Shown: piece by piece, positions 3,371 to 63,931 of the stretch | Layout of the letters: each line of letters starts with the position of its first letter | How positions within the stretch are numbered: position 1 is the stretch's first letter | Source: an uncultured virus (IMG/VR IMGVR_UViG_3300031885_002559) | Lineage: Duplodnaviria; Heunggongvirae; Uroviricota; Caudoviricetes | IMG/VR virus record: IMGVR_UViG_3300031885_002559 | Length of the DNA stretch: 64,000 bases | Direction: 5' to 3' (one strand) | Made by a program: the position numbers and the translations under genes | Notes under the pieces: generated by a model | What the model was told of the DNA's origin: nothing | The model's database searches: none | The model's input: only the letters and a program-made list of their open reading frames with translations

Positions 3371-4237
3371 CTAGGCCCTTTGAACGACGGTCAAGTCCTG
3401 ATGAATGCTCTCTGCATAAAACGTGGCTTCGCACGTCAGAGGGCCGGACTCCTTGTAGGTGAGGTCACCTACTTTGAAACCAGCCAGCCAAGCCTGCTTA
3501 ACTACATAGGACATGGATTGCTCCAAAGCACCGAAGGACGCGATGGATGTCAGTGTGCGCGGGGCACTAACCGACGCCTCCAGCCTCTCTCGGCTGGAGG
3601 CTTCGATGCTGGCCATGTCCACCCCTTTAAGCGATTCCGCGTACCGTTGCTGGGTCTGCCGAGCAACAAGTGCCTGCTGATTTTGTACAGCCAGCGCCTG
3701 CGGTGTCAGGTTGACATCGTTAACGTCGGCAGGCTTTAGCAGGTAGACCTCAAAGTTGAACCTGAACGGGTAACCGTAAGGTGTTCGGCTGCCCTTGGGG
3801 CGCAGCGCAAGGGTCTCGGCGTACCATCCCGTCAAACCGCCATGAACCCGACTGCCGCGTCCTGCCCTAACAAGCTCATGCCAAGTAGTCAAAAACGCGA
3901 GCGTATCGTTAGTCGGACTAATACCGTAGTTTTGGTTGACGGGCATCAGAAAGGTGATGCGCATGGCATCCAGAGGCTCATCCCAGCTCGGCATGTTGAA
4001 TGGCACGTTCCCACGCCGGATGGGGTCGGCCTTCATTTTCAGCTCTGGAATGGTGACGGACTGGGCATACTGAGGAAAAATCGGAGGGATTTCGTACCGG
4101 AGCCCGAGTCTGTTGATGTTGTCCACCACGGGCTTCATGTCCAAGTACCACAGATCGACCCGGTGGGGGTCCAGCCCCTCTGTCGCGGACTTCCCCCAGA
4201 GATTGATCTGGTTCTTTTCGGATATGGGCGCTCGCAT
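3371..4237 (-). CDS. Tail-tube-like / baseplate tube-initiator protein
   Basis: N-terminus (NLWG...LDPHRVDLW) resembles tail tube 8649-9257 (NTFG...LDLQRVDLW); QSVTIPE motif and tube-like C-terminal strand pattern. Confidence 0.55.
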   Translation of the reverse strand: MRAPISEKNQINLWGKSATEGLDPHRVDLWYLDMKPVVDNINRLGLRYEIPPIFPQYAQSVTIPELKMKADPIRRGNVPFNMPSWDEPLDAMRITFLMPVNQNYGISPTNDTLAFLTTWHELVRAGRGSRVHGGLTGWYAETLALRPKGSRTPYGYPFRFNFEVYLLKPADVNDVNLTPQALAVQNQQALVARQTQQRYAESLKGVDMASIEASSRERLEASVSAPRTLTSIASFGALEQSMSYVVKQAWLAGFKVGDLTYKESGPLTCEATFYAESIHQDLTVVQRA

Positions 4238-4258
4238 ACGCTGTAACTACTTCAGAGA

Positions 4259-5254
4259 ATGCAACTCTTAGGAACCTACGCTGGAATCGTCGAAAACGTC
4301 AAAGACCCACAGAGGCTAGGGCGCGTGAAAGCCCGTGTGCCGCACGTACACGGCGTCAGCGGAAGTGGAGCTGGGTACATCGGCACCAACGACCTGCCGT
4401 GGGCACTTCCGTCAGGTATGCCCGCCGGGGGCGGCCCGGCGTCAGGTGGCTTCAGCCAGCTCCCAGCCGTAGGAGACAAGGTCTGGGTCCGGTTTCTCGA
4501 TGGGGAGCCGGAAAAGCCCGTCTGGGAGTGGGGAATGCAGTCCCTGACCGACCGGGACAACATGAAGCTCCACAGCTACGATGAGACTGCGGGCAAGGTT
4601 GGCAACCCGAAGAGCACCATCTGGACACGCTACGGCCATGCCTTTGAGATCAACGCGGGCAGCATCATCGTAACGACGAGCAAGGGCTACAGGCTTCAAA
4701 TCATCGACGGAGACCCGACCGACGGGACAATCCGGCTCACGACCGCACTGGGCAACCAGTTCCAGCTCGACGACCTCGACGACGGGGCCTTCTTGCACGC
4801 CAACGTGGACTTCCGCCTCGACATCTCCAACGAGCTGAGAGGCACGTCGGACTCCTTCACGTGGCGGACGATGAGCAGCGATTTCAGCGTTCGGTCGGGC
4901 GGGGCCATCGACATGACTTCCGTCGATGACATCACGCTGACTACGACCTCAAACTTCAGCGTAGACGCCCTGACCGCCGTGGACATCAGCGCTTCGACCA
5001 ACATGACGCTCACAGCAGGCGCACAGATGCAGTTGGAGTTCACGACGCTCAACCTCGGCACAGGCGCGAGCGAGCCGTACGTCCTCGGCAACCAGTTGAC
5101 CCTCTTCCTCGACTCACTGCTGCTCTACCTCTCCACCCACACGCACGGCAACGGCAACATGGGGTCACCAACCACACCGCCCATCGTGCCGCCGCTCGGC
5201 GTGGTACAGCCCGTGACAGCCCTTCTGACCTCCAAGGTCATCCTCGGCCAGTAG
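4259..5254 (+). CDS. Baseplate central spike (gp5/gpV-like)
   Basis: DPQRLGRVKARVP and LPAVGDKVWVRFLDGEPEKPVW (Gp5 OB-fold), beta-helix-like repeats, C-terminal HTH metal-binding tip motif (STHTHGNG). Confidence 0.85.
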   Translation: MQLLGTYAGIVENVKDPQRLGRVKARVPHVHGVSGSGAGYIGTNDLPWALPSGMPAGGGPASGGFSQLPAVGDKVWVRFLDGEPEKPVWEWGMQSLTDRDNMKLHSYDETAGKVGNPKSTIWTRYGHAFEINAGSIIVTTSKGYRLQIIDGDPTDGTIRLTTALGNQFQLDDLDDGAFLHANVDFRLDISNELRGTSDSFTWRTMSSDFSVRSGGAIDMTSVDDITLTTTSNFSVDALTAVDISASTNMTLTAGAQMQLEFTTLNLGTGASEPYVLGNQLTLFLDSLLLYLSTHTHGNGNMGSPTTPPIVPPLGVVQPVTALLTSKVILGQ

Positions 5255-26536: not shown

Positions 26537-26558
26537 GGGGGCCGGGCAACCGGCCCCC
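26537..26558 (+). terminator. GC-rich hairpin after the DUF932-like gene
   Basis: GGGGGCCGG-GCAA-CCGGCCCCC; no strong U-tract. Confidence 0.4.
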
Positions 26559-27877: not shown

Positions 27878-28567
27878 CTACGCGGTCTTCCCGACACGTT
27901 TGGCCAGCTCGCCCAAGGCGTGCAGAAGCTCAGCCTCGCTGGAAACCAAAAACCGGCTATCCGGGTCGTAGTGCCCTATGACCTCTAGCTCCACACTGCC
28001 CTTGCCCGGCTCCGGCACGTTCTTGTGAACCGTGGCGTATACGCGCCAGATACGTCGGCTATTCGGCGTCCAGTCCAGCAGGATGTCACGCCGATCCAAA
28101 GGCCGGTCAAATTGACCAACCGTAAACACGTACTTGAACCCAAAGTCTTTCAGAATGCGGAGGAAGGCCACGTGCGGAAAGGCGTACTCCTTCGGGTTGA
28201 ACTCGAAGTCGTCTTCGTCCTCGTCTTCCAGCAGCGACTCGCCGAGCACAAACCGGACAGGAATGGTGTCGAGCCCCAGTTTGTAGGCCGCCCAGACCCG
28301 ATGATGGCCGTTGCGCATGACGAGACGCCCGTTCCAGTCCTCGACCTGCACCGGCTGGCGTATACCTTTCTTGCGGATCGAGTCCAGAAACTTGTCCCAG
28401 TACGCCGGGTCCAACTGGTAGTGATTGCGCTCGATGTAGGCGAAGATGTCCGGCCACGTCCGCAGGCCGTAGTCCACCGGCTCGATCTCGGCGTACACGC
28501 GCTGGATTGGAACGCGCTCGACGCGCACCTCCTCCAGCAAAGCCTGCACGACACCCTGCGCGCTCAT
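27878..28567 (-). CDS. ParB/Srx-like N-terminal domain protein
   Basis: SIRKKGIRQPVQV...MRNGHHRVWAAYKLG..IPV. Confidence 0.75.
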   Translation of the reverse strand: MSAQGVVQALLEEVRVERVPIQRVYAEIEPVDYGLRTWPDIFAYIERNHYQLDPAYWDKFLDSIRKKGIRQPVQVEDWNGRLVMRNGHHRVWAAYKLGLDTIPVRFVLGESLLEDEDEDDFEFNPKEYAFPHVAFLRILKDFGFKYVFTVGQFDRPLDRRDILLDWTPNSRRIWRVYATVHKNVPEPGKGSVELEVIGHYDPDSRFLVSSEAELLHALGELAKRVGKTA

Positions 28568-29043
28568 AGGGTCGATCCACAGCCTCCAGCGCCGGGGCTG
28601 CCCCCAGAGCCACCGCAGCATCCTCCGCCGCCTCCTGAGCCCCCTGTGGAGCCGCCGCTGGTGCCTCCTGTGCTCCCTCCAGCTCCACCGCCGCCTGAAT
28701 TGTTGCCGATGCCCCCACCGCCCGGTGCCGGGCCGCTGGACGATGCGCCGCCGGGCTGCGGGCCGCCGGTCGGTGCTGCGAAGTTGTGCCCGTACTGCTG
28801 CGAGGGCGTCAGCGTGCCCTCTGGGATCGTGATGATTGCCTCGACCTGCGGCTGGTTGTTCGGAAACGTCGAGCCTGCCGCGCCGGGACCGGTGGCCGGA
28901 ATCATGACGGGAACGTTGTTAGCGCCCTGTGACACGGACATGTGCGCGAAGTAGTACGGGTCGTACTTGTACTGCACAACCGTTCGCGTGCGCCGAGGAA
29001 AAGCGCCGACTCGGGCTAGCTCTGGAGGCGTTGGTGTAGCCAC
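28564..29043 (-). CDS. Gly-rich hypothetical protein
   Basis: Poly-Gly C-terminus; preceded by GTAGCTA, a variant of the late motif. Confidence 0.5.
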   Translation of the reverse strand: MATPTPPELARVGAFPRRTRTVVQYKYDPYYFAHMSVSQGANNVPVMIPATGPGAAGSTFPNNQPQVEAIITIPEGTLTPSQQYGHNFAAPTGGPQPGGASSSGPAPGGGGIGNNSGGGGAGGSTGGTSGGSTGGSGGGGGCCGGSGGSPGAGGCGSTL

Positions 29044-29201
29044 GCTCTAGCTACAGTGTCAAAAAAGCGTGATTTTCTTGTTGCGCTTTATTGGGGTACG
29101 CGTATACGTAGCCACGAACGTCCGACCTTCACTGGTAGCCCGAGCGCCAAATCCGCTCTTAAAGCATCACGACTGTCTGACACAACCGAAAGTAAACCTG
29201 C

Positions 29202-29885
29202 ATGAGTAGTAACCTCGTTGGAGACGTAATCACCCTAACCCTCGCTGGCATCCGACCGTTTCTGTTTGCCAACGGACAATCCGCTGATCCTCTCGGCCCG
29301 TACTGGGAGAAGATTCAAGTGCTGCGCAGCAAGCGGAAGAAAACCCGAGCTGACTATGAGGCGCTGGAAGACCTCATGTGGTACAGCCAGCTCTACATCA
29401 ACGCCAAGGGACAACTGATTGTCCCCGCCATGAACGTATACGAGTCCATCCGCAAGGGTGCCTCGAAGTTCCGCATGGGCGAGGCGTTCAAGAGCGGCCT
29501 CTTCGTCGAAACCGATGACGAGGGCAGCGAGGGCTTCGTCATCGAGTACGAAGGCCCCAAAGACCCGAAGAAGATGCGCGCTGATCCGTGCTTCACGTTC
29601 CGCCGCATGACCCCGACCTCAACCGGTCAGCGCACACCCGTCGTCTACCCGATGATCAGCGGGTGGAAACTCCGCGTCAAGATCAACACCGATCCTTCGG
29701 TTCTTAACCCCAAAGACGTAATCCGCGCCTGCGTGCTGGCCGGGCGCTACGTGGCCATCGGCGGCCATCGGCCTCAGTTCGGGCGGTACCTCTGCGAGGA
29801 CGTTATGGTGAATGGAGAACCGGTCGCTATGGACGACGCCGCGACGCCCGAGCAGCCGAAGAGCCAGCCGAAGAGCAAGAAGTGA
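29202..29885 (+). CDS. Cas7/RAMP-like protein
   Basis: N-terminal strand ITLTLAGIRPFLF, IVPAMNVYESIRKGA helix, PMISGWKLRVKI strand and Gly-rich loop AGRYVAIGGHRPQFGRY match RAMP/Cas7 architecture; a repeat array follows. Confidence 0.7.
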   Translation: MSSNLVGDVITLTLAGIRPFLFANGQSADPLGPYWEKIQVLRSKRKKTRADYEALEDLMWYSQLYINAKGQLIVPAMNVYESIRKGASKFRMGEAFKSGLFVETDDEGSEGFVIEYEGPKDPKKMRADPCFTFRRMTPTSTGQRTPVVYPMISGWKLRVKINTDPSVLNPKDVIRACVLAGRYVAIGGHRPQFGRYLCEDVMVNGEPVAMDDAATPEQPKSQPKSKK

Positions 29886-29892
29886 GAAAACA

Positions 29893-30102
29893 ATGAGCGC
29901 GACCAACAGCTATCCGATTCTCCGTCACTGGAAAGTGCGGGTCACGCTCAGGACCGATCCTTCGGTCATTAGCCCCGAAAACGTGGTGCGCGCCTGTGCG
30001 CTAGCCGGTCGTAACGGCATAGGCGCGCACCATCCGAAGTTCGGTCAATTCGTCTGCCAAGATGTCAGAATAAACGGAAAGCCGATTAACCAGCACGAAT
30101 GA
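29893..30102 (+). CDS. Half-size paralogue of the C-terminal part of the RAMP-like protein
   Basis: YPILRHWKVRVTLRTDPSVISPENVVRACALAGRNGIGAHHPKFGQF aligns with YPMISGWKLRVKINTDPSVLNPKDVIRACVLAGRYVAIGGHRPQFGRY. Confidence 0.75.
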   Translation: MSATNSYPILRHWKVRVTLRTDPSVISPENVVRACALAGRNGIGAHHPKFGQFVCQDVRINGKPINQHE

Positions 30103-30620
30103 ACACTCTACCTGACCTGTCTACGCCGTGCGTCGAGCCGCCTACGGCGGAGGTCGCCCACCTCATCGTAACGAACTGCGCCTACGGTGACACAGTCCCT
30201 ATCACGTGGTTTGAGACCCAGTTTGGGGCCAAGGAGGGGAAGTGGCGCTTCACCGGCCCTATGATTCGAGTGCGGAGCTTACTCAAGCTACAAGGCCGGA
30301 AGCTGTCGCGCATTGGACGCGATGGTGTATACGTAGTGCTACACAAGGAAAGCCTAGTCCGCGTGGCCGCCCAACAAGCCAAAACGGCGGTGCGGACCCT
30401 TGGCGAAAACGCAAAAATGCTGAACGCCATAAGTCGTACCGGCATGGAGTCTGACGCTATCAGGCGCATGGATTACTGGCAGAACAAAACCGCGTTCATG
30501 CACCGGGTCGCGACCGAAGCGTTGACCATGCAGGAGATCCCCGAAGGCAGCAACATGCCAAAGCTGCTTGCGGATATGCTGCGGAATCCGAACAAGAAGA
30601 AGAAGCCGAAGGCTGAATGA
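30099..30620 (+). CDS. Accessory protein of the RAMP-array locus (possible winged-helix plus helical domain)
   Basis: Translationally coupled (ATGA); basic C-terminus; its stop codon sits inside a degenerate repeat. Confidence 0.6.
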   Translation: MNTLPDLSTPCVEPPTAEVAHLIVTNCAYGDTVPITWFETQFGAKEGKWRFTGPMIRVRSLLKLQGRKLSRIGRDGVYVVLHKESLVRVAAQQAKTAVRTLGENAKMLNAISRTGMESDAIRRMDYWQNKTAFMHRVATEALTMQEIPEGSNMPKLLADMLRNPNKKKKPKAE

Positions 30621-30681
30621 TTTCGACAATTTCCACCCGACACATTTCCCGTCTACTCCTTCCGTCACAAGACGCGACGTT

Positions 30682-31465
30682 ACAACCCACGGCCTCGCAA
30701 GAGGCCGAAGATTTCCCTCCCTGCCATCCCCCGCCAGCCCGAACCTGCACCCTCCCGCACAGTACACAACAACCCACGGCCTCGAAAGAGGCCGAAGATT
30801 TCTCTCCGTGCCAGCACGCCCCTCGCCACGCCACCCCTGCCCTCGTCCTTACAACCCACGGCCTTCAGCAATGGAGGCCGAAGATTTCAACCCCGCTCCT
30901 ACCAGCCCACCACAGCACCGGACAGTACCCCACAACCCACGGCCTCGAAAGAGGCCGAAGATTTCACGCCAGAACTCACCCGGTCAACACTCGACACCAC
31001 ACGCCAGCGCCCTACCGCGCACAACAACCCACGGCCTCGAAAGAGGCCGAAGATTTCTCTCCACGCCCCCACGGCCCAGAGCCCTACTGGACTCGCCAGT
31101 CCATGCCGTAACACAACAACCCACGGCCTCGAAAGAGGCCGAAGATTTCTCTCCACCCCAAGTCCGCACGTCCCCTGCCAAGCCACTACTGTCCACCACA
31201 GGACCAAACAACCCACGGCCTCGAAAGAGGCCGAAGATTTCCCTCCCCACCTCGTCAGCACCGCCCGGCCCTCGACTAGACCCCACCCTCCAACCCAGAA
31301 CAACCCACAGCCCGCCGGTCTTCTTGACGGCGGGCTGAAGTTCGTATACGTTGGATCGGACAAGGCGTCCCTTTTACGCCACGATTCCCGGCCATACTAT
31401 GCCCGGCAATACAAAGGCAGTGCAAAACAACCCACAGCCCCTCGCAAGAAGGGCTGAAGTTTTTC
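30682..31465. repeat. CRISPR-like array of nine hairpin repeats with 5-nt-periodic spacers
   Basis: Consensus ACAACCCACGGCCTCGAAAGAGGCCGAAGATTTC (34 nt) starting at 30682, 30769, 30851 (variant), 30932, 31024, 31116, 31208, 31300 (variant) and 31427 (variant). Spacers are 53, 48, 43, 58, 58, 58, 58 nt. Confidence 0.95.
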
Positions 31466-31472
31466 GGTATAC

Positions 31473-31505
31473 AAAAAGAGAGCCCCGGATTTCTCCGGGG
31501 CTCTC
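31473..31505 (-). terminator. Intrinsic terminator of the major capsid gene
   Basis: Minus strand GAGAGCCCCGGA-GAAA-TCCGGGGCTCTC-TTTTT. Confidence 0.85.
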
Positions 31506-31526
31506 GTGTCAAACTGGTCGCTCAGC

Positions 31527-32996
31527 TTAGCCAATGGTCTGGCCAAACGCTGTCGGCGAGTTCTGGATCAACCCTCGGCAATACATCTTCGAGTTGATCA
31601 TCTTCCGGGCGAACGAGGTCGCGAACCCGCGTTGATGGATGAAGTCCGGCAGAACGATGTCGGGCGTCGTATACAGTTTTTGGTACTCCGCCAGCACGTA
31701 CCCGGTCGTCAAGAATTGGTCGCCCTTGTGGCCGACCAGAAACTCGTTGTTCGGATAGTGGGGATCAGCAAAAACTTTTTTGTTCCCCAGATCACCGATG
31801 TAGGTGATGCCCTGCATCTGCACGCGGTTGTTCTTGGGAACGAACTGCGGCAGTGTCGCCACGACCGTCGCCGCCTGAAGGCCGAGCAGCAACCAGTTTC
31901 CGGCCACCATGTTCGTGGCACCGAAAATGAAATTGCTGGCCGTCTCGAAGGCGTCGATGATCGAGAACTTGTGGGTCTGGTAGTTGACGCTCGCCGGGGC
32001 GATGGCGTCCCACACCACGAAACCGGCGTCCGCTTTGGCGCGCAGGTCGAAGATCACCTGACGGTGCTTCTGATACTGCAATGCGTTCGTCAGGGCATTG
32101 AGCAGGACGCTCTCCGCCTTGATGTTGTACATCGCTTGCAGGTTCTGATCGGCTTCCTCGGACCAGAGCGTCTTCAGCTTCATCACCTTGGCGGTGACAG
32201 GAGTGCTGGAGAGCTTCATCTCGTAATCTTGGATCGCGAGATTGCCTTCCGAGTTGAACGCGTACGTCAGCGAGTACGCCGCCGTGTTGTGCGCGCCGTC
32301 CGTGAAGGTCAGCGTGCCCGCGCCCGTGCCCTGATAGACAATGGTGCCGACGCTGCCGTTGGTCGCCACGTCAATGATGTTGCCGTTGCCGTCGTCGCCG
32401 ACGGTTAGCCCACCTGCGGTGCCACTGATCGTACCGGCGCGGATCGGAGTCCATTCGAGGACAAGCACGCCACCACCGCTCGTGGTGCCACTCTCGTCCT
32501 GAACGACCTCATCAGCGTCGTCGTCGCGGTCCACTGCGCCCTGAAGCGCACGCCACATGGGAGCGCCAGCCGGGGTGCGGCCCTTGCGCCGACCGGTCAC
32601 GATGTCCATGTAGACGATCTGGCTCACTGGGCCAGCCATCGGCTGCACGGCCACCAACTGGTCGATCACGTCGTTCTCCGACATGTTCGCGATCACGGGG
32701 AAAATCCACTTGTCGAACGTTCCCAGTGATGTGGTGCGGGTGACTTCGTCGAGGCGGCCAAACCGGGAACGGCAGTTCTCCAGCATGATCGCAGCGACGG
32801 GCCGCTTGTGTTCGGGCATGTGCTGCACGAACTCTTTCCAGCCACGGGCTTCCCAAAGCCCACGCGTACTCTTCTCGGGGATTCCGACCGGGGTTTCAGC
32901 GAGACGGTGTCCCCATTCGAGGATTTCCGTGAAGCGGTTGATCTGACCGCCCTCACTCGCCAACATCGGTCTTCCTGACTCGTGTAGGATTACCAT
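31527..32996 (-). CDS. gp23: Major capsid protein, T4 gp23-like
   Basis: VAVQPMAGPVSQIVY, VTAKVMKLKTLWSEEADQNL, GDLGNKKVFADP, GYVLAEY motifs. Confidence 0.93.
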   Translation of the reverse strand: MVILHESGRPMLASEGGQINRFTEILEWGHRLAETPVGIPEKSTRGLWEARGWKEFVQHMPEHKRPVAAIMLENCRSRFGRLDEVTRTTSLGTFDKWIFPVIANMSENDVIDQLVAVQPMAGPVSQIVYMDIVTGRRKGRTPAGAPMWRALQGAVDRDDDADEVVQDESGTTSGGGVLVLEWTPIRAGTISGTAGGLTVGDDGNGNIIDVATNGSVGTIVYQGTGAGTLTFTDGAHNTAAYSLTYAFNSEGNLAIQDYEMKLSSTPVTAKVMKLKTLWSEEADQNLQAMYNIKAESVLLNALTNALQYQKHRQVIFDLRAKADAGFVVWDAIAPASVNYQTHKFSIIDAFETASNFIFGATNMVAGNWLLLGLQAATVVATLPQFVPKNNRVQMQGITYIGDLGNKKVFADPHYPNNEFLVGHKGDQFLTTGYVLAEYQKLYTTPDIVLPDFIHQRGFATSFARKMINSKMYCRGLIQNSPTAFGQTIG

Positions 32997-33030: not shown

Positions 33031-34752
33031 TTACTTGGCGGCAGCACCGCTCATACGGCGTACCATCTCCACGCTCTCGTTCAGACCGGGGGCCGTGAAC
33101 GACGACGAGTAGATAACCTTCGTTTCAGTCACAGGCTTTGCGGCTGAATCCTTTTTGTCCTCGGTCACCGGGGCGGCCTTCTTGTCCTCTTTGGACTCGT
33201 TGGTCACTTTGCCGGGTTCCTTGGCGACCTTCCCCTCTTCGGGACTCGGGGCACCCTTCTGCTTCTCGTCCTTGATGGCTTCCTTGGACGGGGCTTCGCC
33301 TTCCTTCGGCGTCGCAGCGGGGCCTTTGTCTCCCTCAACCACAGGCTTCTTGCCTTCCAGCTCCTCGCGGATGGCGGCAACGTGGCGGAGGCGGGTGGCT
33401 TCCTTGAGCTTCTTGGTCAGAGCTTCGTTGGTGGCCAGCTTGTCTTTGAACTCAAGCTGGAGCAGGCGGCGACCCAGTTCCGTGGTGTCCTCGTGATACC
33501 GGGCGGCCATGAGGTCGAGGGCTTCGGTCGAGGTGTCAAACTGCTTCTCAATGAGTTGCAGCTTGCCCTTGCGATCTTCGGCGATCTGACGCCAGCCCTG
33601 ACCGCGCTTGGTCAGTTCTTCCACCATCTTCTGGGCCTTGGTCCCGGCCTGAAGGCTTTCACCGAGCTTCTTCTTGTACGTGATGGCAGTCTGGGCGACC
33701 GCGTTCACCACGCGCATGAGCTTGGTGTTGTTTTCCGTCAGCTTTCTGGCCTGACGCGTAGGAGCCGCCGCAGCTTCGTTGAAAGACGATGCCATTTGAT
33801 CGAGTTCGCGATGGGTCTTCTGAGCATCCCAAGCGCGTGTCGCATCACCGGCTGCCCACTTGGCAGTCTCCTGATGCAGCTCCTCGATCAAAGTCACGCT
33901 CTCAGCGAACCGCTGCGGGTCGAGCTTGGAAGGCTCCACCGCTCGAAGTGCCGTTACACGGCCTTTGATCTCGTTGAGTTCCATACTTTTGATCCTGTTG
34001 GTTTTCGTGGGGCTGGCGGCAGCGGCGGCTGGGCCAGTTGAAGGAGACTCCTTCAAATCGGTCTTGGCTTCCGTCAGAGCGACCTCCTTGGCTGGCTCTT
34101 TGGACTCCGCAGTAGGGTTGGGGGCAACCGGCGCAGCCATGCGTGCATTGGGCGCGCTGGCGGCAGGCTCACGGACGGGCTTCAGCTCGGCCTGCTCAAA
34201 GCTGGGCTTGATAACCACGTCCCACGACTCGCACACGTAGTCATCCTGTACGTCGTCAATGCCGTCGGCGGATTTGGAAAGTGAACCGTAGCCCCGGCTG
34301 GACACGAGCGGGTTGTACCCGGCTTCGATCAGGGCCTTGAGCTTGTCGCCCTCCGGGGTCTCGACGAGGGAAATCTCGCCCACGACCTCCCAGATAGACT
34401 TACCGACCTCATCCTTGCTTTCGATGAGCTTAGCCTCGGTGACGACGTGGGAGATGGGAGAGAGAAGGGTGACAATTCCGTCTTTGGGGTGTTCCAGCAG
34501 GCCGAAAGCCGCATTGCGCTCTATGGCCTCCATCAGCGGGGAGCCGTTGGTGAGATTCTTCTCCCAAACGTGCTTGGAGTAGCGCCTCCCGTTCCCGTTT
34601 ACGCAGTCACAGATGCTTAGGCGGCCCGGAATGCGAGTAACCTTGAGCCCGCTTGGACGGCTCTCAGAGACTAGAGGCTTCGTCCGGTCTACAAAGAAAG
34701 GAAACGCGCCGGTTACGCCTTCGGCAAGGTATTGTCGCATAGCAATGGACAC
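33031..34752 (-). CDS. gp21: Prohead core protease (gp21-like) fused to a coiled-coil scaffold-like region
   Basis: NGNGRRY, GLLEHP, VSSRGYGS, WDVVIKPS protease motifs, then about 380 aa of helical, charged tail. Confidence 0.88.
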   Translation of the reverse strand: MSIAMRQYLAEGVTGAFPFFVDRTKPLVSESRPSGLKVTRIPGRLSICDCVNGNGRRYSKHVWEKNLTNGSPLMEAIERNAAFGLLEHPKDGIVTLLSPISHVVTEAKLIESKDEVGKSIWEVVGEISLVETPEGDKLKALIEAGYNPLVSSRGYGSLSKSADGIDDVQDDYVCESWDVVIKPSFEQAELKPVREPAASAPNARMAAPVAPNPTAESKEPAKEVALTEAKTDLKESPSTGPAAAAASPTKTNRIKSMELNEIKGRVTALRAVEPSKLDPQRFAESVTLIEELHQETAKWAAGDATRAWDAQKTHRELDQMASSFNEAAAAPTRQARKLTENNTKLMRVVNAVAQTAITYKKKLGESLQAGTKAQKMVEELTKRGQGWRQIAEDRKGKLQLIEKQFDTSTEALDLMAARYHEDTTELGRRLLQLEFKDKLATNEALTKKLKEATRLRHVAAIREELEGKKPVVEGDKGPAATPKEGEAPSKEAIKDEKQKGAPSPEEGKVAKEPGKVTNESKEDKKAAPVTEDKKDSAAKPVTETKVIYSSSFTAPGLNESVEMVRRMSGAAAK

Positions 34753-57262: not shown

Positions 57263-57337
57263 TGGTCCCGGCGGTCGGGGTTGCACCGACACTCGACGGG
57301 TCAAAGCCGTCACGTGCTACTGTTACACCACGCCGGA
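57263..57337 (-). tRNA. tRNA-Gln(TTG)
   Basis: Cloverleaf, anticodon arm GACGG-CTTTGAC-CCGTC, encoded CCA, atypical T-loop TGCAA. Confidence 0.85.
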
Positions 57338-57340
57338 AAA

Positions 57341-57416
57341 TGGTACCGCCAGCCGGGGACGATCCGGCAACCCTCCGGTTAAAAGCCGGATGCTCTGCCT
57401 GTTGAGCTATGGCGGT
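57341..57416 (-). tRNA. tRNA-Lys(TTT)
   Basis: TAGCTCAA..GGCAGAGC D-arm, TCCGG-CTTTTAA-CCGGA, CCA. Confidence 0.88.
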
Positions 57417-57422
57417 ATACGG

Positions 57423-57506
57423 TGGTCGTCGCGGGGAGACTTGCACTCCCAAGGCTCTCAGGCTCTCGACCTGAACCCTCTGCTATTCGGGCTTAACCAC
57501 GCGACG
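57423..57506 (-). tRNA. tRNA-Leu(GAG), non-canonical fold
   Basis: 7-bp acceptor, TCAGG-TCGAGAG-CCTGA, T-arm, ACCA end. Confidence 0.7.
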
Positions 57507-57525
57507 GAAAGCTGTTCTACGGACT

Positions 57526-58026
57526 GTGCCCGTACACCAAAGAAGGCCAGACCTCATCAACGAGGCAAACATCGCTGAAAGCAGCAGGGTCTACTGGAAA
57601 CATCACGGTATTCTGCTAGTACCCATCAAGGCTGACGAAATGGCCGAGACAGACATCGTGTGGCTTTCAGGCCAGTACGCGGGCCTTGTAAACGAGTGTA
57701 AGTGCCGTTTCCGTGTTAAAGTCACCGACTACGATTTGCTGATCGACAAAAAGAAGATCAACGCAGGCATCAAAGAGGCAGAACGCCTTAACGTCAGATT
57801 CTTGTTAACAATCTGGTGGGGAGCCCAAAACGGTATTGGCGACGACGTAGCGTGGGCACGCTGGATCGACCGAGACGAGGCGAGTAAGTTCAAGGTGGTC
57901 CTGTGGGGACGAAACGATGAACGCGACGACAACGACATAGACCCCTCGTACAGCATACCTACTCACACTTTCACCATAGCGATTCCAATGCTCTACGAGA
58001 GGCTGCGATCACCCGCATCTACGTGA
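57526..58026 (+). CDS. PD-(D/E)XK nuclease-like protein
   Basis: ETDIV...VNECKCR pattern. Confidence 0.55.
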   Translation: MPVHQRRPDLINEANIAESSRVYWKHHGILLVPIKADEMAETDIVWLSGQYAGLVNECKCRFRVKVTDYDLLIDKKKINAGIKEAERLNVRFLLTIWWGAQNGIGDDVAWARWIDRDEASKFKVVLWGRNDERDDNDIDPSYSIPTHTFTIAIPMLYERLRSPAST

Positions 58027-58117
58027 CCGCACGCCGCTTAGCACGCGACGAAAAAGAAAATGGTGCCCGCCGCTTAGCACGCGACGGGCACCGGTATCAA
58101 ACGGAGCTTTTTAGCTT

Positions 58118-58257
58118 TGAAATCGAACAAGCACGAAACTTTGAGCTTGATCCTGATGCTCTACCGCTGAGCTACCCGCTCAAAACCAAAACCGTGAAAG
58201 TGGCGAGCGGGATGGGATTTGAACCCACGACCTCAGTTTAAGTTGTTTCGTCTCGCA
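58118..58257 (-). ncRNA. YrlA-like Y RNA (circularly permuted tRNA mimic)
   Basis: T-arm and 3' acceptor (GTGGGTTCAAATCCCATCCCGCTCGCCA) come before the 5' acceptor and D-arm (GAGCGGGTAGCTCAGCGGTAGAGC); closing stem ACGAAAC/GTTTCGT. Confidence 0.75.
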
Positions 58258-58370
58258 GATTTCCTTCCGCCTGCGTTGTTGAGCCTTCGGGTGATAGCCT
58301 GATCTTTAGCCTGAATCTGACGATTACCCTGAGCTTGGACAGGACTGCCTTACGACAGCCCCACCCGAAA

Positions 58371-59135
58371 TCAAACCTGACCGTTGAAGATGTAGCGCAG
58401 CAGATGCGCGCCGATCTTCTTGAAGAGGTCCACCTCTGTCTCGTTGGCCCGCGAGCGCGCTCGACGGACAGAGCGCAGCAGGATTTCCGAGCGTTCCAGC
58501 AGCTCCGCCTTCTCGGCGGGCGTGACCAACCCCGACCACTCTTGCTCGTGGATCGTACCAACCGGCACGTCCACGGTCAGCATCTCAGTCTGAGCCGGGT
58601 GCTCCTTGGTGGCGTCGTACTTGATGACGACCCGCACGTCCTTCTTGGTGCGGGTCTTCACAACCTCACGCGCCCGGTAGATGTGCTCGCCGCGCTCCGG
58701 GTCCGCTGTGAAACCCTTGGCTGGGTCCAGCGTGGGCACGGCGTGAACGAGCGCGTGAATCTCCGCGATGCGCTTTTCCAGTTCGAGCAGAGCAGTTGCC
58801 GGAACGTCCTTGACCAGCACGGTCCCCGCGTCGTCGTCGAGAATGATGTCGGCGCGAGCCACGGTGTTGGCTTCAGCCACCTGAAACGACGCGTCCAGCG
58901 CCTTCTGGAGAAAAGCGCTGATCCACTTCAGCTCCTTGCGAACAGTCGATTGGATGTCCGACTGCCCCTCGGTGACGGCGGGCTTGCCCTCTTCCGAGGG
59001 AACGAACAGAACGCGCTTTTCTTCAAACAGGTGGCGCTTCTTTTCAAAGGTAGCGGCCAAGTCGGTACGCGTCTTGGTCGCCTGTGTTTCGAGATTGGTC
59101 TCAACGGCCAGTAGTTCGTGGAGTCGTGTTGGCAT
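58371..59135 (-). CDS. Conserved helical phage protein upstream of the Y-like RNA
   Basis: LHELLAVE start; VPATALLELEK, PTLDP, ATKEHPAQ, WSG; sigma70-like promoter upstream. Confidence 0.7.
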   Translation of the reverse strand: MPTRLHELLAVETNLETQATKTRTDLAATFEKKRHLFEEKRVLFVPSEEGKPAVTEGQSDIQSTVRKELKWISAFLQKALDASFQVAEANTVARADIILDDDAGTVLVKDVPATALLELEKRIAEIHALVHAVPTLDPAKGFTADPERGEHIYRAREVVKTRTKKDVRVVIKYDATKEHPAQTEMLTVDVPVGTIHEQEWSGLVTPAEKAELLERSEILLRSVRRARSRANETEVDLFKKIGAHLLRYIFNGQV

Positions 59136-59192
59136 ATCTGTGCGTAGCGTATACTTGTTGATGGTTTCGTCAACAGAAAAACTCGGTCAAAG

Positions 59193-59735
59193 TCACCGCC
59201 GCCTAAACCTATCGACGTAAACGGGAATCCGTGTTGGTGGTTTCACAGGCTCTTGTGAGACTTGTGGAACAGAATTGGTAGTCACCTGCTCAGGCGGTTT
59301 TGCTTTTAGCAGACGCCGTTTTCCCACTTCTTTGACGGCGATGACCTCTTTCGTCGCGCAATTCTCCGCCGCAGCTTCTTCTGCGGTCTCAAAGACAAGC
59401 TTGGCCCCGTTAGCTCGAACTACGATCCAGAACTTTCGCGCTTGGACAAGCACACCCGTTTTGCTGGGAACGTAAGCCGTCACGTCCCAGACAAGCGCTT
59501 TCATCTCCGTGATCGAGCACTCGCGCTCGCCTACGACTTCAATCACGCGCAGAGTCTCAAGTTCAGCAAAGCGCGGGCGAATACTGTCGATTTGGTAACC
59601 AGCCAGCGCGCTGGCAACTTCGTGCGCTGTCAGTGGGCCGTGGTGAAATAGGTGTGCGTATACACTCCAGCGCAATCCGGTCAGCAGTCCTGAGTCTTCA
59701 ATTTTTGCGTATGCTTCAGCACTGGTGTTGCGCAT
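59193..59735 (-). CDS. Winged-HTH protein
   Basis: GPLTAHEVA.....SIRPRFAELETLRVIEVVGER. Confidence 0.65.
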   Translation of the reverse strand: MRNTSAEAYAKIEDSGLLTGLRWSVYAHLFHHGPLTAHEVASALAGYQIDSIRPRFAELETLRVIEVVGERECSITEMKALVWDVTAYVPSKTGVLVQARKFWIVVRANGAKLVFETAEEAAAENCATKEVIAVKEVGKRRLLKAKPPEQVTTNSVPQVSQEPVKPPTRIPVYVDRFRRR

Positions 59736-59749
59736 ACCACTATAGAACG

Positions 59750-59781
59750 TGGTTGACCCGGTCGGCTACGATCCGACAACC
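59750..59781 (-). pseudogene. Isolated tRNA 3' half (T-arm, acceptor strand, CCA)
   Basis: GGTTGTCGGATCGTAGCCGACCGGGTCAACCA directly after the CCA of the adjacent tRNA. Confidence 0.6.
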
Positions 59782-59782
59782 T

Positions 59783-59858
59783 TGGTGGGCCTTGTGGGAC
59801 TCAAACCCACGGTCTATCGCTTATGAGGCGATTGCTTTAGTCGCTAAGCTAAAAGCCC
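59783..59858 (-). tRNA. tRNA with CAT anticodon (probably Ile2, possibly elongator Met)
   Basis: GGGC start, ATCGC-CTCATAA-GCGAT, ACCA. Confidence 0.8.
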
Positions 59859-59864
59859 AGAAAA

Positions 59865-59955
59865 TGGCGGAAGGCAGTGGACATCATCCACACCCCGGTT
59901 TAGCGGAGCCGTCGGTTTAGCAAACCGCGATAGCACGCTGGCTATTTTACCTTCC
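59865..59955 (-). tRNA. tRNA-Ser(GCT)
   Basis: GGAAGG start, CGGT-TTGCTAA-ACCG, long variable arm, GCCA end; degenerate D and T loops. Confidence 0.75.
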
Positions 59956-59960
59956 GTATA

Positions 59961-59995
59961 CAAAAGGCGGCTGGCCAGTTTCCCAGCCAGCCGCC
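59961..59995 (-). terminator. Intrinsic terminator after Ro60
   Basis: Minus strand GGCGGCTGGC...GCCAGCCGCC-TTTT. Confidence 0.75.
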
Positions 59996-60015
59996 GTTGG
60001 GCCTGTAGGCCGCAG

Positions 60016-61698
60016 CTATTCGTCAGCCACAGTCTCTTCGGCCTTGGCTGCCGCGTCACCACGGATGAAGTTCGCGATGATCGGCGGGGCCGACGCATCG
60101 AAACCTACGACATCCAGACCGAACTTGTCGGTCGGATCGTTGACGGTGAAGTCGTTCGCGCACGTAGCCACGAAGACCGACCGGGCATCCCGTACGAACT
60201 TCTGCCGGTACTCGCGCAGCGCCTGAGCCGGGTGGCGACCGCAGTTGACCTCACCGTCGGTCATGCAGATGAAGCCACCGACCTCCAGCTTGTTCTGGAG
60301 CGCGTACTGGAATGCCAGCGAGATGTCCGTCGAACCGAAGTTCGAGCGTAACGCCCGGTTCATCGCGTCGTCGAGCGACATACCCTTGCGGATACCCAGC
60401 TCCACGAACTGATGCGCAAACCCGAAGACGTGGCACTCTGGCTCCACGCTCAGGTGAATGAGCGACAAGGCCGCCGTTGCCTCGCACGAGCGAAGCACCG
60501 AGCCAGCGATCTGGCTGCCCATCGAGCCTGAAACATCCAGAGCGATGAGCACCGGCTTGCCGCAGGGTACGACGTTCGGAAACGCCGCGTAGAAGGCTTG
60601 GTCAAGGTCCGCTAGGATCGACGGGACCGGGGTCCACGTGAGATCGCCCTTGATGCCACGGCCCTGCCCGTATACGCGGTGAGCGACCAGCACCGCCATC
60701 GGGTGAATGCGCGACTTCCGCAGGTACGCTGCGTCAGTCAGTCGGTTCCGCACCAGTTTGGCCGCTGCCGACAGCGGCTTCACCAGCCCGATGGAGGTCA
60801 TCTTGCCGAGGTTACGGATCAGGGCCGTAAGCGGCATCTTCTGAAGCAGAGCCTCCCAGACGGCGAGGCTGTTCAGGTGCTGCGTCGGGATCGCCTCCCG
60901 AGGGAGGTTGCTCTCGACGATGAGTTCGATGACCCGCTTCTCGGAAGCCGTCTTGGCCTCCTCGAACGCCTTGATCAACTCGGGCAGGTAACGCGTGCGC
61001 GACGGGTACTTCGCGACGGTCTCCTTGGCCTTCCGCTTGACCTCCCGCGCACCCAGCACACCCATGCCGCCAACCATCCAGCGCAGAACCGAGTCCTGCG
61101 CGGCGGAGGCCGCCTTCGGATGAGCCAGACGCAGGATGTCTGCGTGGGTCCAACCGTCACGCTGCTGGTACTTGATCGCCTGAAAGGCCAACTGGTCAGC
61201 CTCCCGAGACGTGTACCAGCCGCTGGCTGCCCGGCAGATAGCTCGTCCCCATCCACGCAGCGCGTTGATGTACTGCGCGAAGTGGAACAGGTGCGTGCCG
61301 ATACGGCAAACCTTGGGGAGTGCCGCTGCCGCTGCCGCCTTGGCTGCCGTGTCACCGTGGGTGAGCGCCAGCGCCAGAGCGAAGATGGCCGGGTCATTGC
61401 GGTACGCAAGGCCCTTGTCGGAGACCTCAGTGATCCGCTTGACGGCCCGAACACCGTCAGCCTTGATGCAGCGTACGGTCGCGCCGTGCTTCTGCTTCAG
61501 GAGTTCCGGCTCCTTGATGTAGTACGTGCCCTTCTCGACCCCGAGGATCAGGAAGCGGTCAAGGTTTGCCCAGTCATCGACCTGCCAGACAAATCCGCCG
61601 TCGGAATCCGGCACCATGTCGGTGCGGCCCGGCAGAGGCTGGGTAACCGGCGTGTTGGTGGCGCGCCGGTTGAACTGCGTCATGTTGATGGTTGCCAT
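60016..61698 (-). CDS. rsr: Ro60/Rsr TROVE + vWA domain RNA-binding protein
   Basis: GGFVW, LDRFLILG, VCRIGTHLFHF, KYQQRDGWTH.D.LRLAHP, MPLTALIRNL, ALDVSGSM (MIDAS), TDGE, VVGFDA. Confidence 0.96.
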   Translation of the reverse strand: MATINMTQFNRRATNTPVTQPLPGRTDMVPDSDGGFVWQVDDWANLDRFLILGVEKGTYYIKEPELLKQKHGATVRCIKADGVRAVKRITEVSDKGLAYRNDPAIFALALALTHGDTAAKAAAAAALPKVCRIGTHLFHFAQYINALRGWGRAICRAASGWYTSREADQLAFQAIKYQQRDGWTHADILRLAHPKAASAAQDSVLRWMVGGMGVLGAREVKRKAKETVAKYPSRTRYLPELIKAFEEAKTASEKRVIELIVESNLPREAIPTQHLNSLAVWEALLQKMPLTALIRNLGKMTSIGLVKPLSAAAKLVRNRLTDAAYLRKSRIHPMAVLVAHRVYGQGRGIKGDLTWTPVPSILADLDQAFYAAFPNVVPCGKPVLIALDVSGSMGSQIAGSVLRSCEATAALSLIHLSVEPECHVFGFAHQFVELGIRKGMSLDDAMNRALRSNFGSTDISLAFQYALQNKLEVGGFICMTDGEVNCGRHPAQALREYRQKFVRDARSVFVATCANDFTVNDPTDKFGLDVVGFDASAPPIIANFIRGDAAAKAEETVADE

Positions 61699-61838
61699 AG
61701 GTAATGGCAGTCGTACTTCCCGTATACGTTATCGGGTTTTCACCGCTGGCTGCTGCTACAGCCTGATGGTTTTTGACAGTCGTCCAGCAAGGGAATCGGC
61801 CAGACGAAAGCGACGAAGAGAAGAACACGAAAGAAGAA

Positions 61839-61969
61839 TGGCGAGCAAAGAGACGCAGTCGGAAATGCTGACCGCTGTGCTACCGCTACACCAACTCCCG
61901 GTGTTCGGGAGCCAAGGAGTCGAACCTTGTCCAACGGTTCCGATGATAACCAACTACTACGGCTCGCCA
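61839..61969 (-). ncRNA. yrlA: YrlA Y RNA upstream of Ro60
   Basis: Terminal stem GGCGAGC/GCTCGCC; T-arm CAAGG-TTCGACT-CCTTG; loop-closed acceptor GCTCCCG/CGGGAGT; then D-arm TGGTGTAGCGGTAGCAC. Confidence 0.85.
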
Positions 61970-61972
61970 AAG

Positions 61973-62425
61973 TGGTGGAGGCGAGGGGAATCGAACCCCT
62001 GTCCTTATGCGCCTTGCGACGCGTTCACATGCTTCCCCGATTTTGACCAGTAGACTGGAGCCAGACCGGGAACTGCTCTCAGCCGGTGCGGTGAAGACCA
62101 CCGCCGGTCAGCGCCGACTTGTTCGCTCGGCACCCAGACTAACCTGCTGTCGTCGGTCGGCCCAGCCTAGCAGGCGTCAGTTGGCGACCGTCGCACGGCG
62201 TTTAGGCCGCAGCGAGTTCCAGAACCTCGGTCTCTTCAAACTGAACGAGGATCGCATCCGGGTTGCGGATGATCTCCGTCGCTTCAGCGAGCAGGGACTC
62301 GATGTTCAGGGTATCAGTTGCTTCGTCAGCAGTTGATGTTTGCCTCGGGGTTTTACGTGGCCAACGAGACATCCACGGCATGTAGCGCACGGTCCAGCAA
62401 CACAAGTCGAGACCTGTACGCCCCC
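61973..62425 (-). ncRNA. ssrA: tmRNA
   Basis: 5' GGGGGCGTACAGGTCTCGAC, 3' GGGGTTCGATTCCCCTCGCCTCCACCA, G3-U70 pair; tag frame 62330-62202 ending LAAA-stop. Confidence 0.93.
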
Positions 62426-62531
62426 ATCAAAGAACGATCTGAAAATAGGCCCCGGATCACTCCGGGGTCGGGGCTGGCTGGTTCAACAGCCGCCATCCAC
62501 CATTCCGCCGCACATACGGCGAAATCGAAAT

Positions 62532-62608
62532 TGGTTGCGGGAGCTGGATTTGAACCAGCGACCTCTTGGTTATGAGCCAAGCGAGCTTCCGGGCTGCTCC
62601 ACCCCGCG
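62532..62608 (-). tRNA. tRNA-fMet(CAT)
   Basis: CGCGGGGTGGAGCAGCCCGG start, C1:A72 mismatch, CTCATAA loop. Confidence 0.9.
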
Positions 62609-62661
62609 ATGCAAAGAACGCTGTTACCGTATACCTGCGCGAATCTCTGTCAACGAAAAGT

Positions 62662-62745
62662 TGGTCGGCGCGGAGGGACTTGCACCCTCAAGGCTGACGG
62701 ATTTTGAATCCGTCCGGTCTGCTATTCCCTGTGAACCACGCGCCG
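62662..62745 (-). tRNA. tRNA-Leu(CAA), non-canonical fold
   Basis: ACGGA-TTCAAAA-TCCGT, 7-bp acceptor, ACCA. Confidence 0.75.
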
Positions 62746-62751
62746 ACTAGA

Positions 62752-62835
62752 TGGTGTCCGCACCGGGACTTGCACCCGGAAGGGGCGGGGGTTTAAGCCC
62801 CGTGGCTCTGCTGTTCGCGCTGACCCCATGCGGAC
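62752..62835 (-). tRNA. tRNA-Leu(TAA), non-canonical fold
   Basis: CGGGG-CTTAAAC-CCCCG, ACCA. Confidence 0.75.
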
Positions 62836-62843
62836 GTATACAG

Positions 62844-62919
62844 TGGTCGCTCCAGTCGGGGTTGCACCGACAACCTCTGGTTCCTAAGACCAGCGCCTCT
62901 GCTATTGGGCTATGGAGCG
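62844..62919 (-). tRNA. tRNA-Leu(TAG), short variable loop
   Basis: CTGGT-CTTAGGA-ACCAG, 76 nt, ACCA. Confidence 0.8.
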
Positions 62920-62923
62920 AAGA

Positions 62924-63007
62924 TGGTCGCCACGAGACGAATTGCACGTCCAAGGCTCACTCCTTCTGAGGGAGGCCCGTCTGCTATTCCGGGTAAACCA
63001 CGTGGCG
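62924..63007 (-). tRNA. tRNA-Leu(CAG), non-canonical fold
   Basis: CTCC-CTCAGAA-GGAG, ACCA. Confidence 0.72.
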
Positions 63008-63017
63008 TAGTTAAGGC

Positions 63018-63854: not shown

Positions 63855-63855
63855 A

Positions 63856-63931
63856 TGGTACCCTCGGCTGGAGTCTCGCCAGCAACCTGCGGTTTCGAGG
63901 ACCGCCGCTCTATAAATTGAGCTACGAGGGC
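63856..63931 (-). tRNA. tRNA-Arg(TCG)
   Basis: GCCCTCGTAGCTCAA, GCGGT-CCTCGAA-ACCGC, ACCA; degenerate T-loop. Confidence 0.75.

Follow-up and report, generated by a model that had tools for sequence, protein, structure and literature searches.

A VIPR locus with a non-GGY pentamer array and altered guanine-contact residues in an uncultured sediment phage

Results

An operon and a hairpin array amid phage head genes

The 64,000-nt DNA of an uncultured phage (IMG/VR record IMGVR_UViG_3300031885_002559; this whole stretch is called the window below) carries a small plus-strand island, from position 29202 onward, amid head genes encoded on the minus strand, with the capsid gene downstream. The island holds a gene for a 227-aa protein, a 69-aa open reading frame (ORF), a gene for a 173-aa protein and an array of nine hairpins (Table 1). 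An original prediction made from the letters of the sequence had reported this three-gene operon with its nine-hairpin array, and the ORF list and repeat mapping find both in place. We compare the locus here with VIPR (Viral Interference Programmable Repeat) systems, in which, as described in preprints of 2026, a Vipr protein coats guide RNAs built of five-base steps and silences rival DNA. According to the text of one of these preprints, the published guide RNAs (vrRNAs) are ~100 nt long and consist of 9-16 pentamers (GGY+NN) and, after these, a structured tail that does not vary; they are often arrayed downstream of vipr and of an accessory gene, vap (10.64898/2026.04.26.720920).

Table 1. 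Coordinates of the features in and around the VIPR locus (positions in the 64,000-nt window)
Feature	Position	Strand	Remarks
Gly-rich ORF, 159 aa	28564-29043	-	upstream of vipr
Divergent intergenic region	29044-29201	+	upstream of vipr; holds a weak candidate promoter
vipr	29202-29885	+	227 aa; RAMP/Cas7-fold protein, assigned to a divergent clade of the Vipr family
Half-Vipr ORF	29893-30102	+	69 aa from ATG (listed ORF start 29812); paralogue of Vipr residues 149-208
vap-like accessory gene	30099-30620	+	173 aa; occupies the vap position of VIPR loci
Mini hairpin	30604-30624	+	AGCC-GAA-GGCT then GAATGATTTC; overlaps the vap stop codon
Eight vrRNA units (pentamer tract + tail)	30621-31342	gene strand favoured
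Tracts 1-4	30621-30681, 30715-30768, 30802-30850, 30888-30931
Tracts 5-8	30965-31023, 31057-31115, 31149-31207, 31241-31299
Tails 1-4	30682-30714, 30769-30801, 30851-30887, 30932-30964
Tails 5-8	31024-31056, 31116-31148, 31208-31240, 31300-31342
Nine hairpin copies (starts)	30682, 30769, 30851, 30932, 31024, 31116, 31208, 31300, 31427		ACAACCCAC, hairpin, GAAG(A)TT
Non-periodic 84-nt segment	31343-31426	+	between hairpins 8 and 9
Ninth, divergent hairpin + T5 run	31427-31461 (to 31466)	+	likely terminator of the plus-strand unit
Intrinsic terminator of the capsid gene	31478-31505	-	12-bp stem, GAAA loop on the minus strand, then TTTTTGT; bounds the VIPR locus
Major capsid protein, T4-type	31527-32996	-	Pfam Gp23, E 4.5e-30
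Prohead protease	33031-34752	-	S77, E 5.3e-15

The 227-aa protein is a divergent Vipr homologue by sequence and predicted fold

In a phmmer search against the sequences of solved structures, residues 10-203 of the 227-aa protein matched residues 4-191 of 36pp_D, the 'SUSP1 Vipr protein' (E 5.4e-12), to which it is ~23% identical; the next match, to the type IV Cas7 protein Csf2, was weak (E 0.11). The protein also matches phrog_4652, a family with no assigned function (E 5.1e-27), and no Pfam family was found for it in a Pfam scan of the operon proteins. Homologues, all below 60% identity, were found by tblastn in 127 phage records, including phiSUSP1 and felixounaviruses, and an exhaustive HMMER search gave 1578 proteins at E<=1e-3, the best non-self matches being 38-40% identical. 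A word-based homologue search with the vipr product recovered only itself.

AlphaFold2 (AF2), supplied with a 60-row alignment, predicted a beta-alpha-beta-beta-alpha-beta core with a predicted local distance difference test (pLDDT) score of 93.8; a run on the single sequence had been uninformative (pLDDT 40), and the alignment-based model was used instead. The best Foldseek matches of this model were Csm3/Cas7 and Csf2 chains (E from 6e-7, probability 1.00, 105 matches at E<=1e-3), at template modelling (TM) scores of just 0.4-0.5. The G-loop of the protein, IGGHRPQFGRY, aligns to the family's GDWRPRxGRF. The original prediction had called the protein RAMP/Cas7-like and had named VIPR as the system it resembled; the Csm3/Cas7 fold of the confidently predicted model bears out the former, and the phmmer match to SUSP1 Vipr, read with the published descriptions of VIPR, confirms the latter. 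The sequence and model comparisons combined indicate that the protein is a true Vipr homologue, a member of the family by descent that belongs to a divergent branch.

Pentamer tracts capped by hairpin tails

Nine copies of a motif consisting of ACAACCCAC, a hairpin and GAAG(A)TT punctuate the array. Seven hairpin copies are near-identical (33-37 nt), and in copies 3, 8 and 9 the stems are longer or different but remain paired, three pairs being altered on both sides. ACAACCCAC and GAAG(A)TT are kept in the tails while the stems covary. The segments between the hairpins measure 61, 54, 49, 44, 59, 59, 59 and 59 nt, plus one of 84 nt. These had been described as unique segments of 43-58 nt, in the manner of spacers of clustered regularly interspaced short palindromic repeats (CRISPR), a description that does not survive their 5-nt period: each tract is made of 8-12 pentamers with three constrained and two free bases, and with the best phase chosen for each tract a C falls in phase at 88/90 steps, whereas 5000 shuffles averaged 60.6 such steps and never exceeded 70.

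A logo of 83 pentamers read on the plus strand gave C41/A29/T10/G3 at the first position (p1), C at 81/83 at p2 and A34/C25/T13/G11 at p3, with p4 and p5 matching the base composition of the genome. The gene-strand scaffold is thus M-C-M, with G at 3/83 (p1), 0/83 (p2) and 11/83 (p3), and the other strand reads K-G-K. A GGY or GG scaffold is not present on either strand; at most, the array would be loosely NNNNG-like if the minus strand were the RNA. The array is a vrRNA array in the published VIPR layout, each tract capped by a hairpin tail. The hairpin repeats, taken in the original prediction for a departure from VIPR, are the vrRNA tails, and the segments between them are the pentamer repeats; the non-GGY scaffold on the gene strand, which that prediction had overlooked, is a real peculiarity.

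The p4/p5 positions also vary in nature. Sediment metagenome DNA runs (10 listed, with no RNA run among them) contain DNA of this phage, and contigs of four sediment DNA runs carry an alternative unit 4 that differs at 30900, 30907, 30910, 30911, 30915 and 30921. Five of the six differences lie in p4/p5 and one is a C>A change at p1, where both bases are allowed; none lies in p2/p3. Further tracts of like kind are joined to the same tail at loose contig ends in the sediment runs.

At the two ends of the array, the mini hairpin that overlaps the vap stop codon looks like a tail's 3' half, so that tract 1 appears to be flanked on its left as the other tracts are, and the ninth hairpin is likely a plus-strand terminator, which an upstream A run makes look bidirectional. 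A search of the array and tails of the window against Rfam gave no family. We discount a 256-aa ORF that runs across the array (30568-31338): the sequence is rich in C and poor in stop codons, which makes such an ORF an artefact, and a period of 5 nt is not one of coding DNA.

The 84-nt segment contains an operator-like, imperfect 19-bp palindrome at ~31388-31406 (CCGGCCATA-C-TATGCCCGG), which overlaps the -10-like hexamers TACTAT/TAGTAT of the two strands. A single contig of low depth carries seven changes, six of them substitutions and one a 1-nt deletion, immediately upstream of the palindrome (31356-31385).

Replacement of the guanine-contact residues

In SUSP1 Vipr, as given in the text of the structural preprint, G1 of the scaffold is read by H17 and D177, G2 by R138 and W178, and Y3 by R179, C173, T175, E71 and M72 (10.64898/2026.04.26.720927). 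In our alignments all four guanine-contact residues are replaced in the window Vipr (H17 by A23, R138 by Y149, D177 by G188 and W178 by H189), and the equivalent of R179 is retained as R190. The same columns of the 60-row family alignment hold H in 41 rows, D in 39, R in 50 and W in 30 (plus Y in 13). A group among the nearest relatives shares such replacements (P0002 AYGW, P0003 ANGW, P0004 AYTW, P0005 SYAW and others); scans of viral contigs with P0001-P0005 and with one alignment brought up no usable locus. Together with the window Vipr and the Vipr of a metagenome locus, L014, these relatives form one side of a branch with 88.6 support in the Shimodaira-Hasegawa-like approximate likelihood ratio test (SH-aLRT), the inner five rows receiving 95. 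We refer to this group as the A/Y clade.

A second group with replaced contacts, the S-T clade, comprises 51 viral-contig loci whose four contact positions hold S, R/F, T and W. A FastTree tree separates it from the A/Y clade. The approximately unbiased (AU) test, however, does not reject the two as one clade (p 0.82), the constrained tree being better by 60 log-likelihood units, and we therefore claim no independent origins for them.

Repeat arrays of related loci

A 5-nt period lies beside the Vipr genes in nearly all related loci. GGY repeats are found on the vipr strand in SUSP1, LESphi2, MakoManhole, LittleE and Medea1, and, more broadly, G tracts occupy the vipr strand in 42 of 47 related loci as well as in three canonical loci from a scan of viral contigs. 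Of the other five of the 47, three are truncated loci, and L014 and L024 carry T tracts.

The arrays of the Vipr proteins with replaced contacts differ from these. L014 has 22 NNRTT pentamers on the vipr strand, beginning 13 nt after the stop codon and followed by a hairpin, and an HNH gene stands before its vipr. G tracts are found in 0/51 S-T loci and strict C tracts in 14/51; on the vipr strand, 1553 pentamers from 108 distinct tracts give the logo Y-U-C + NN. The S-T arrays begin where the accessory gene ends, at its stop codon, and in their tails the stems covary and an ACGAWTAA loop is conserved. L096 has six TT-NNN pentamers with a hairpin on its vipr strand; TTGACA-17-TAGAAT precedes them. 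In these comparisons, loss of the guanine contacts goes with pyrimidine-anchored tracts on the gene strand (L014, S-T, L096).

Several further features of these loci may be recorded. L014 is an integrative element from a metagenome, with an integrase fragment, the HNH gene and vipr, and tracts at 1085-1170 and 2058-2172 flank the HNH-vipr pair. The S-T contigs (L050-L099, for example L054 at 4117-5099) look marine. Each of their units starts at CTTAGC, the first of which overlaps the stop codon of the accessory gene; the tails consist of ATCGCT, a stem and the ACGAWTAA loop, and their AUCG could pair with the CGAU of the loop to form a pseudoknot. A second conserved structured element separates some S-T units. 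Rfam found no family in six S-T loci, this second element included, and a hammerhead was looked for there and not found. The vrRNA tails of Gordonia phage MakoManhole (L003 2985-3025 and 3100-3145) and Mycobacterium phage LittleE (L004 4180-4235 and 4335-4385) are tRNA-like, with an acceptor and T-arm half and GGTTCGAnTCC with a long stem, which would suggest 3' processing by tRNA enzymes. ARAGORN called no tRNA in L003, L004, L014 or L054.

Which strand is the RNA

We think it fairly probable that the vrRNA is the gene strand and that this Vipr lineage reads a C-centred scaffold. The alternative is the same VIPR with an array transcribed from the minus strand, convergent with vipr and toward the capsid gene. 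The RNA would then have a relaxed G scaffold, K-G-K/NN (nearest to NNNNG or NNNGG), with a 12-bp hairpin after each tract, and the C anchor of the gene strand would merely be its complement. We consider this arrangement unlikely. Several observations weigh against the gene strand. Every printed scaffold contains G (GGY, NNNGG, YNNNG, NNNNG), and the invariant G of the window lies on the minus strand. There the tail forms 12 pairs (-16.6 kcal/mol), compared with 7 pairs (-12.6 kcal/mol) on the plus strand, and its outer helix, AAUCU/GGGUU, contains three G.U pairs that are C.A mismatches on the plus strand; these G.U pairs never vary and therefore provide no covariation evidence. Hairpin 9 has U.G on the minus strand where the plus strand has C.A, whereas hairpin 3 shows the reverse. 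A simple terminator scan called two hairpins on the minus strand and none on the plus strand, and the 84-nt segment could hold a minus-strand promoter. Read on its minus strand, L014 gives AAY/NN, which closely parallels GGY/NN. The tree is compatible with a single ancestral inversion, which, with A/Y and S-T possibly one clade, could account for all of the gene-strand pyrimidine arrays. Finally, the VIPR operon needs a promoter of its own, because the gene upstream is on the minus strand, and the sigma-70-like promoter put forward in the original prediction (TTGCGC at 29081-29086, a 16-nt spacer and TATACG at 29103-29108) is present as sequence but is weak and goes uncalled by a consensus scan.

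The gene strand is nonetheless the one that we favour, on the basis of the layout of the array and the habits of its relatives. An inverted array was found in 0/45 G-type loci examined, and in the S-T loci L051 and L052 plus-strand genes with PHROG matches lie 23-40 nt past the array. No sigma-70-like promoter was found on the minus strand at 31343-31520, either by consensus scan or by eye. Only when the array is read on the plus strand does every tract, including the first one after vap, have a 3' tail; read on the minus strand, tract 1 runs into vap antisense with just the 4-bp mini hairpin behind it, and two hairpins precede the first tract. GNRA loops occur on the plus strand in 8/9 hairpins, and two other gene-linked hairpins in the window, one after a plus-strand gene (26537-26558) and the capsid terminator on the minus strand, likewise have GNRA on the sense strand of their gene. 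The third scaffold base on the minus strand is G in 49%, T in 35% and C in 4%, the opposite of the canonical Y. We also counted for the gene strand the U5 run, found on the plus strand after the last hairpin only, and the G.U cells of the S-T tail stems, of which there are 6 on the gene strand and 3 on the other (66 distinct hairpins).

Proposed mechanism, target searches and other explanations

Our reading of the whole locus is of a VIPR system with vipr, half-vipr, a vap-like gene, eight vrRNAs and a degenerate ninth unit, the gene-strand RNA being favoured; we hold this to be somewhat probable. We infer its transcription and strand, the formation of a ribonucleoprotein, the targeting rule and silencing, with the homologous VIPR of SUSP1 as the model for the mechanism. 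The array would be co-transcribed from the operon's own promoter, end at the ninth hairpin with its U run and be cut into ~90-nt units. Vipr protomers would polymerise along each tract, one per pentamer, sequestering the three scaffold bases and presenting the two variable ones (p4, p5). The resulting filament would recognise its DNA target with gaps and keep a competitor element from being transcribed, with no nuclease encoded at the locus.

We searched for targets in ~1 Mb of DNA, both strands counted. The eight guides of the window were run under 11 rules (p3p4, p4p5, p3p4p5 and controls, with skips of 0-2) and 88 S-T guides under 7 rules, and none rose above shuffled-order controls, a result that for the window guides counts against our reading. 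With a symmetric skip the p4/p5 target duplex is identical for either strand, and targets would therefore give the rule and not the strand. The lack of a target could also mean that the tracts are not guides, the hairpins being terminator-like or similar to repetitive extragenic palindromic elements, with C-rich filler between them, and Vipr using other RNAs or decaying. The terminator-like look of the hairpins fits this, as does the half-Vipr ORF, which hints at duplication and decay. Filler, however, would not be expected to keep a 5-nt phase at 88/90 steps in register with each hairpin, and the same period is a vrRNA hallmark beside Vipr genes in nearly all related loci; moreover, population variants fall in p4/p5, and vipr is intact, with a model at pLDDT 93.8. 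We therefore regard the absence of guides as very improbable.

Even less credible is a CRISPR-like array, the version given in the original prediction, in which unique spacers would pair contiguously under a Cas7-like coat. The hairpin repeats are regularly spaced and the fold is Cas7-like, as this version would have it, but the 'spacers' are periodic with three of five positions constrained, and they are therefore incompatible with free contiguous guides; in addition, the protein is a Vipr and not a CRISPR Cas7. The original prediction was right that Cas1, Cas2 and a nuclease are missing: none of these, and no Cas6 family, was found in the operon (Pfam) or at E<=1e-5 in 46 further window ORFs, which were long ORFs chosen by a crude filter.

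The half-Vipr and vap-like genes

The 69-aa ORF, predicted earlier to be half of a RAMP protein, proves to be a duplicate of the C-terminal third of Vipr, as seen in a DNA repeat (D4, 29645-29751 versus 29910-30016, 73% identical), in its match to phrog_4652 (E 5.1e-6) and in a protein alignment covering the last strands, the helix and the G-loop. In its G-loop, IGAHHPKFGQF, the Arg residues of the Vipr loop are changed (HRP to HHP, GRY to GQF). Its stop codon overlaps the start of the 173-aa gene (ATGA), which suggests that half-Vipr is translated. It might act as a filament cap or length regulator, or be a remnant, but this is a guess; a modelled complex of Vipr and half-Vipr (score 0.00, mark 0.32) was uninformative either way.

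The 173-aa gene has no Pfam or PHROG family, and a word-based search with its product recovers only itself. Its similarity to the S-T accessory gene is weak but collinear (blastp E 0.07; hhalign E 0.0065, probability 5.8%). Atlas leads for the protein are similarly sized viral hypothetical proteins (score 0.94, TM 0.61-0.66) and, more distantly, MarR-like winged-helix regulators (TM 0.36-0.49). The latter lead raises the possibility that the protein is a winged-helix DNA binder, in line with the description of vaps as DNA-binding in the VIPR preprint. Of the two genes that had been considered extra to a VIPR system, the half-Vipr ORF is indeed so, whereas an accessory gene after vipr is standard.

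Genomic surroundings

Other products encoded in the window are a baseplate V protein, a 5'-3' exonuclease and a Ro60-like protein. The Ro60 homologue (60019-61698, minus strand; TROVE E 7e-41, Ro60 vWA E 2e-43) sits among six tRNA genes found at 57263-63931. Bacterial Ro60 proteins have tRNA-like Y RNAs as partners, and the RNA partner of the phage Ro60 may be encoded close by. Two genes upstream of the VIPR island lies a ParB-N-like protein (27878-28621, minus strand), matched by Pfam at E 0.0018, which is under the cut-off, and by a ParB-like PHROG at E 1.7e-7.

The palindromic hexamer GTATAC occurs in 72 copies in the 64 kb, versus ~9.5 expected from base composition. It is often lengthened to CGTATACG and is both intragenic and intergenic (for example at 29102, 29436, 30327, 31344 and 31467). 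Restriction-type palindromes are usually avoided, and over-representation is the reverse of this; GTATAC may mark a modification, packaging or recombination site. With 72 copies in the window, its occurrence at the candidate promoter says little, and we rejected it as a promoter mark because it is dispersed through coding DNA.

Discussion

VIPR, described in 2026, has so far been understood through one scaffold (GGY) and one structure. Our findings raise the possibility, which we judge to be evenly poised, that a Vipr lineage has given up the guanine scaffold in favour of one centred on a pyrimidine or amino base and read from the gene strand (M-C-M here; R-U-U and Y-U-C in relatives). If true, the scaffold code of VIPR would be evolvable, orthogonal protein-scaffold pairs would exist in nature, and co-infecting phages would be unable to borrow or hijack each other's guides. 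Satellites and phages are described as stealing GGYNN guides (10.64898/2026.10.15.759431), and a gene-strand reading, if correct, would explain how phages stop rivals from using their guides; it would also offer an orthogonal scaffold for programmable DNA binding. The Vipr protein and the array of the window are a direct test case for the co-evolution of protein and scaffold. In addition, the population variant of unit 4, mainly in NN positions (5/6 sites), indicates that guides are rewritten in the wild.

The closest characterized system is the Type II VIPR of Escherichia phage SUSP1, for which the preprint texts describe Vipr, vap1 and four vrRNAs (10.64898/2026.04.26.720920, 10.64898/2026.04.26.720927; PDB 36pp). 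Like it, our locus is phage-borne and nuclease-free and has a homologous Vipr, a two-gene core that pairs vipr with a putative accessory gene, and an array directly downstream, in units of ~90-100 nt whose pentamers have three constrained and two variable bases and are followed by an invariable tail. It differs from SUSP1 in its M-C-M scaffold (K-G-K on the other strand) in place of GGY, in the A, Y, G and H that stand for H17, R138, D177 and W178, in a tail that is a simple GNRA hairpin and not a pseudoknot, and in the additional 69-aa half-Vipr ORF; the G-rich repeats that SUSP1 has on the gene strand are absent there in the window.

Alternative VIPR repeats, NNNGG, YNNNG and NNNNG, are named in the Methods of one preprint (10.64898/2026.04.26.720920). 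The window resembles these types in its relaxed scaffold with fewer fixed bases, and would be near NNNNG or NNNGG if the minus strand were the RNA, but those types all keep G on the vrRNA. No C- or U-anchored VIPR type was found in the text of the literature, though one may be included in fig. S17 or data S4 of 10.64898/2026.04.26.720920. The locus has more in common with L014 and the S-T loci: a Vipr without equivalents of H17 and D177, vipr-strand tracts of 5-nt steps with a pyrimidine anchor, a tail hairpin on the distal side of the tract and an array that starts at the end of the last gene. The fixed bases, however, are UU in L014 and UC in S-T, compared with C in the window, the tails differ, and L014 has an HNH gene instead of the vap-like gene.

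With the backbones of class 1 CRISPR systems (Csm3/Cas7 of type III, Csf2 of type IV), the protein shares a predicted RNA recognition motif (RRM)/RAMP fold and G-loop and, presumably, a thumb and one protomer per fixed step of guide RNA. It would differ from them in a step of 5 nt instead of 6 nt and in gapped pairing with three bases per step sequestered, and the locus has no Cas1/2/5/6/8/10 that we found and no repeats with free spacers. The features of VIPR found here are the protein, its fold, the pentamer tracts with variable NN, the tails and the nuclease-free phage context; those missing are the GGY scaffold and the guanine-contact residues. The system is thus of a kind already published, and what sets it apart is the changed scaffold together with the changed guanine contacts.

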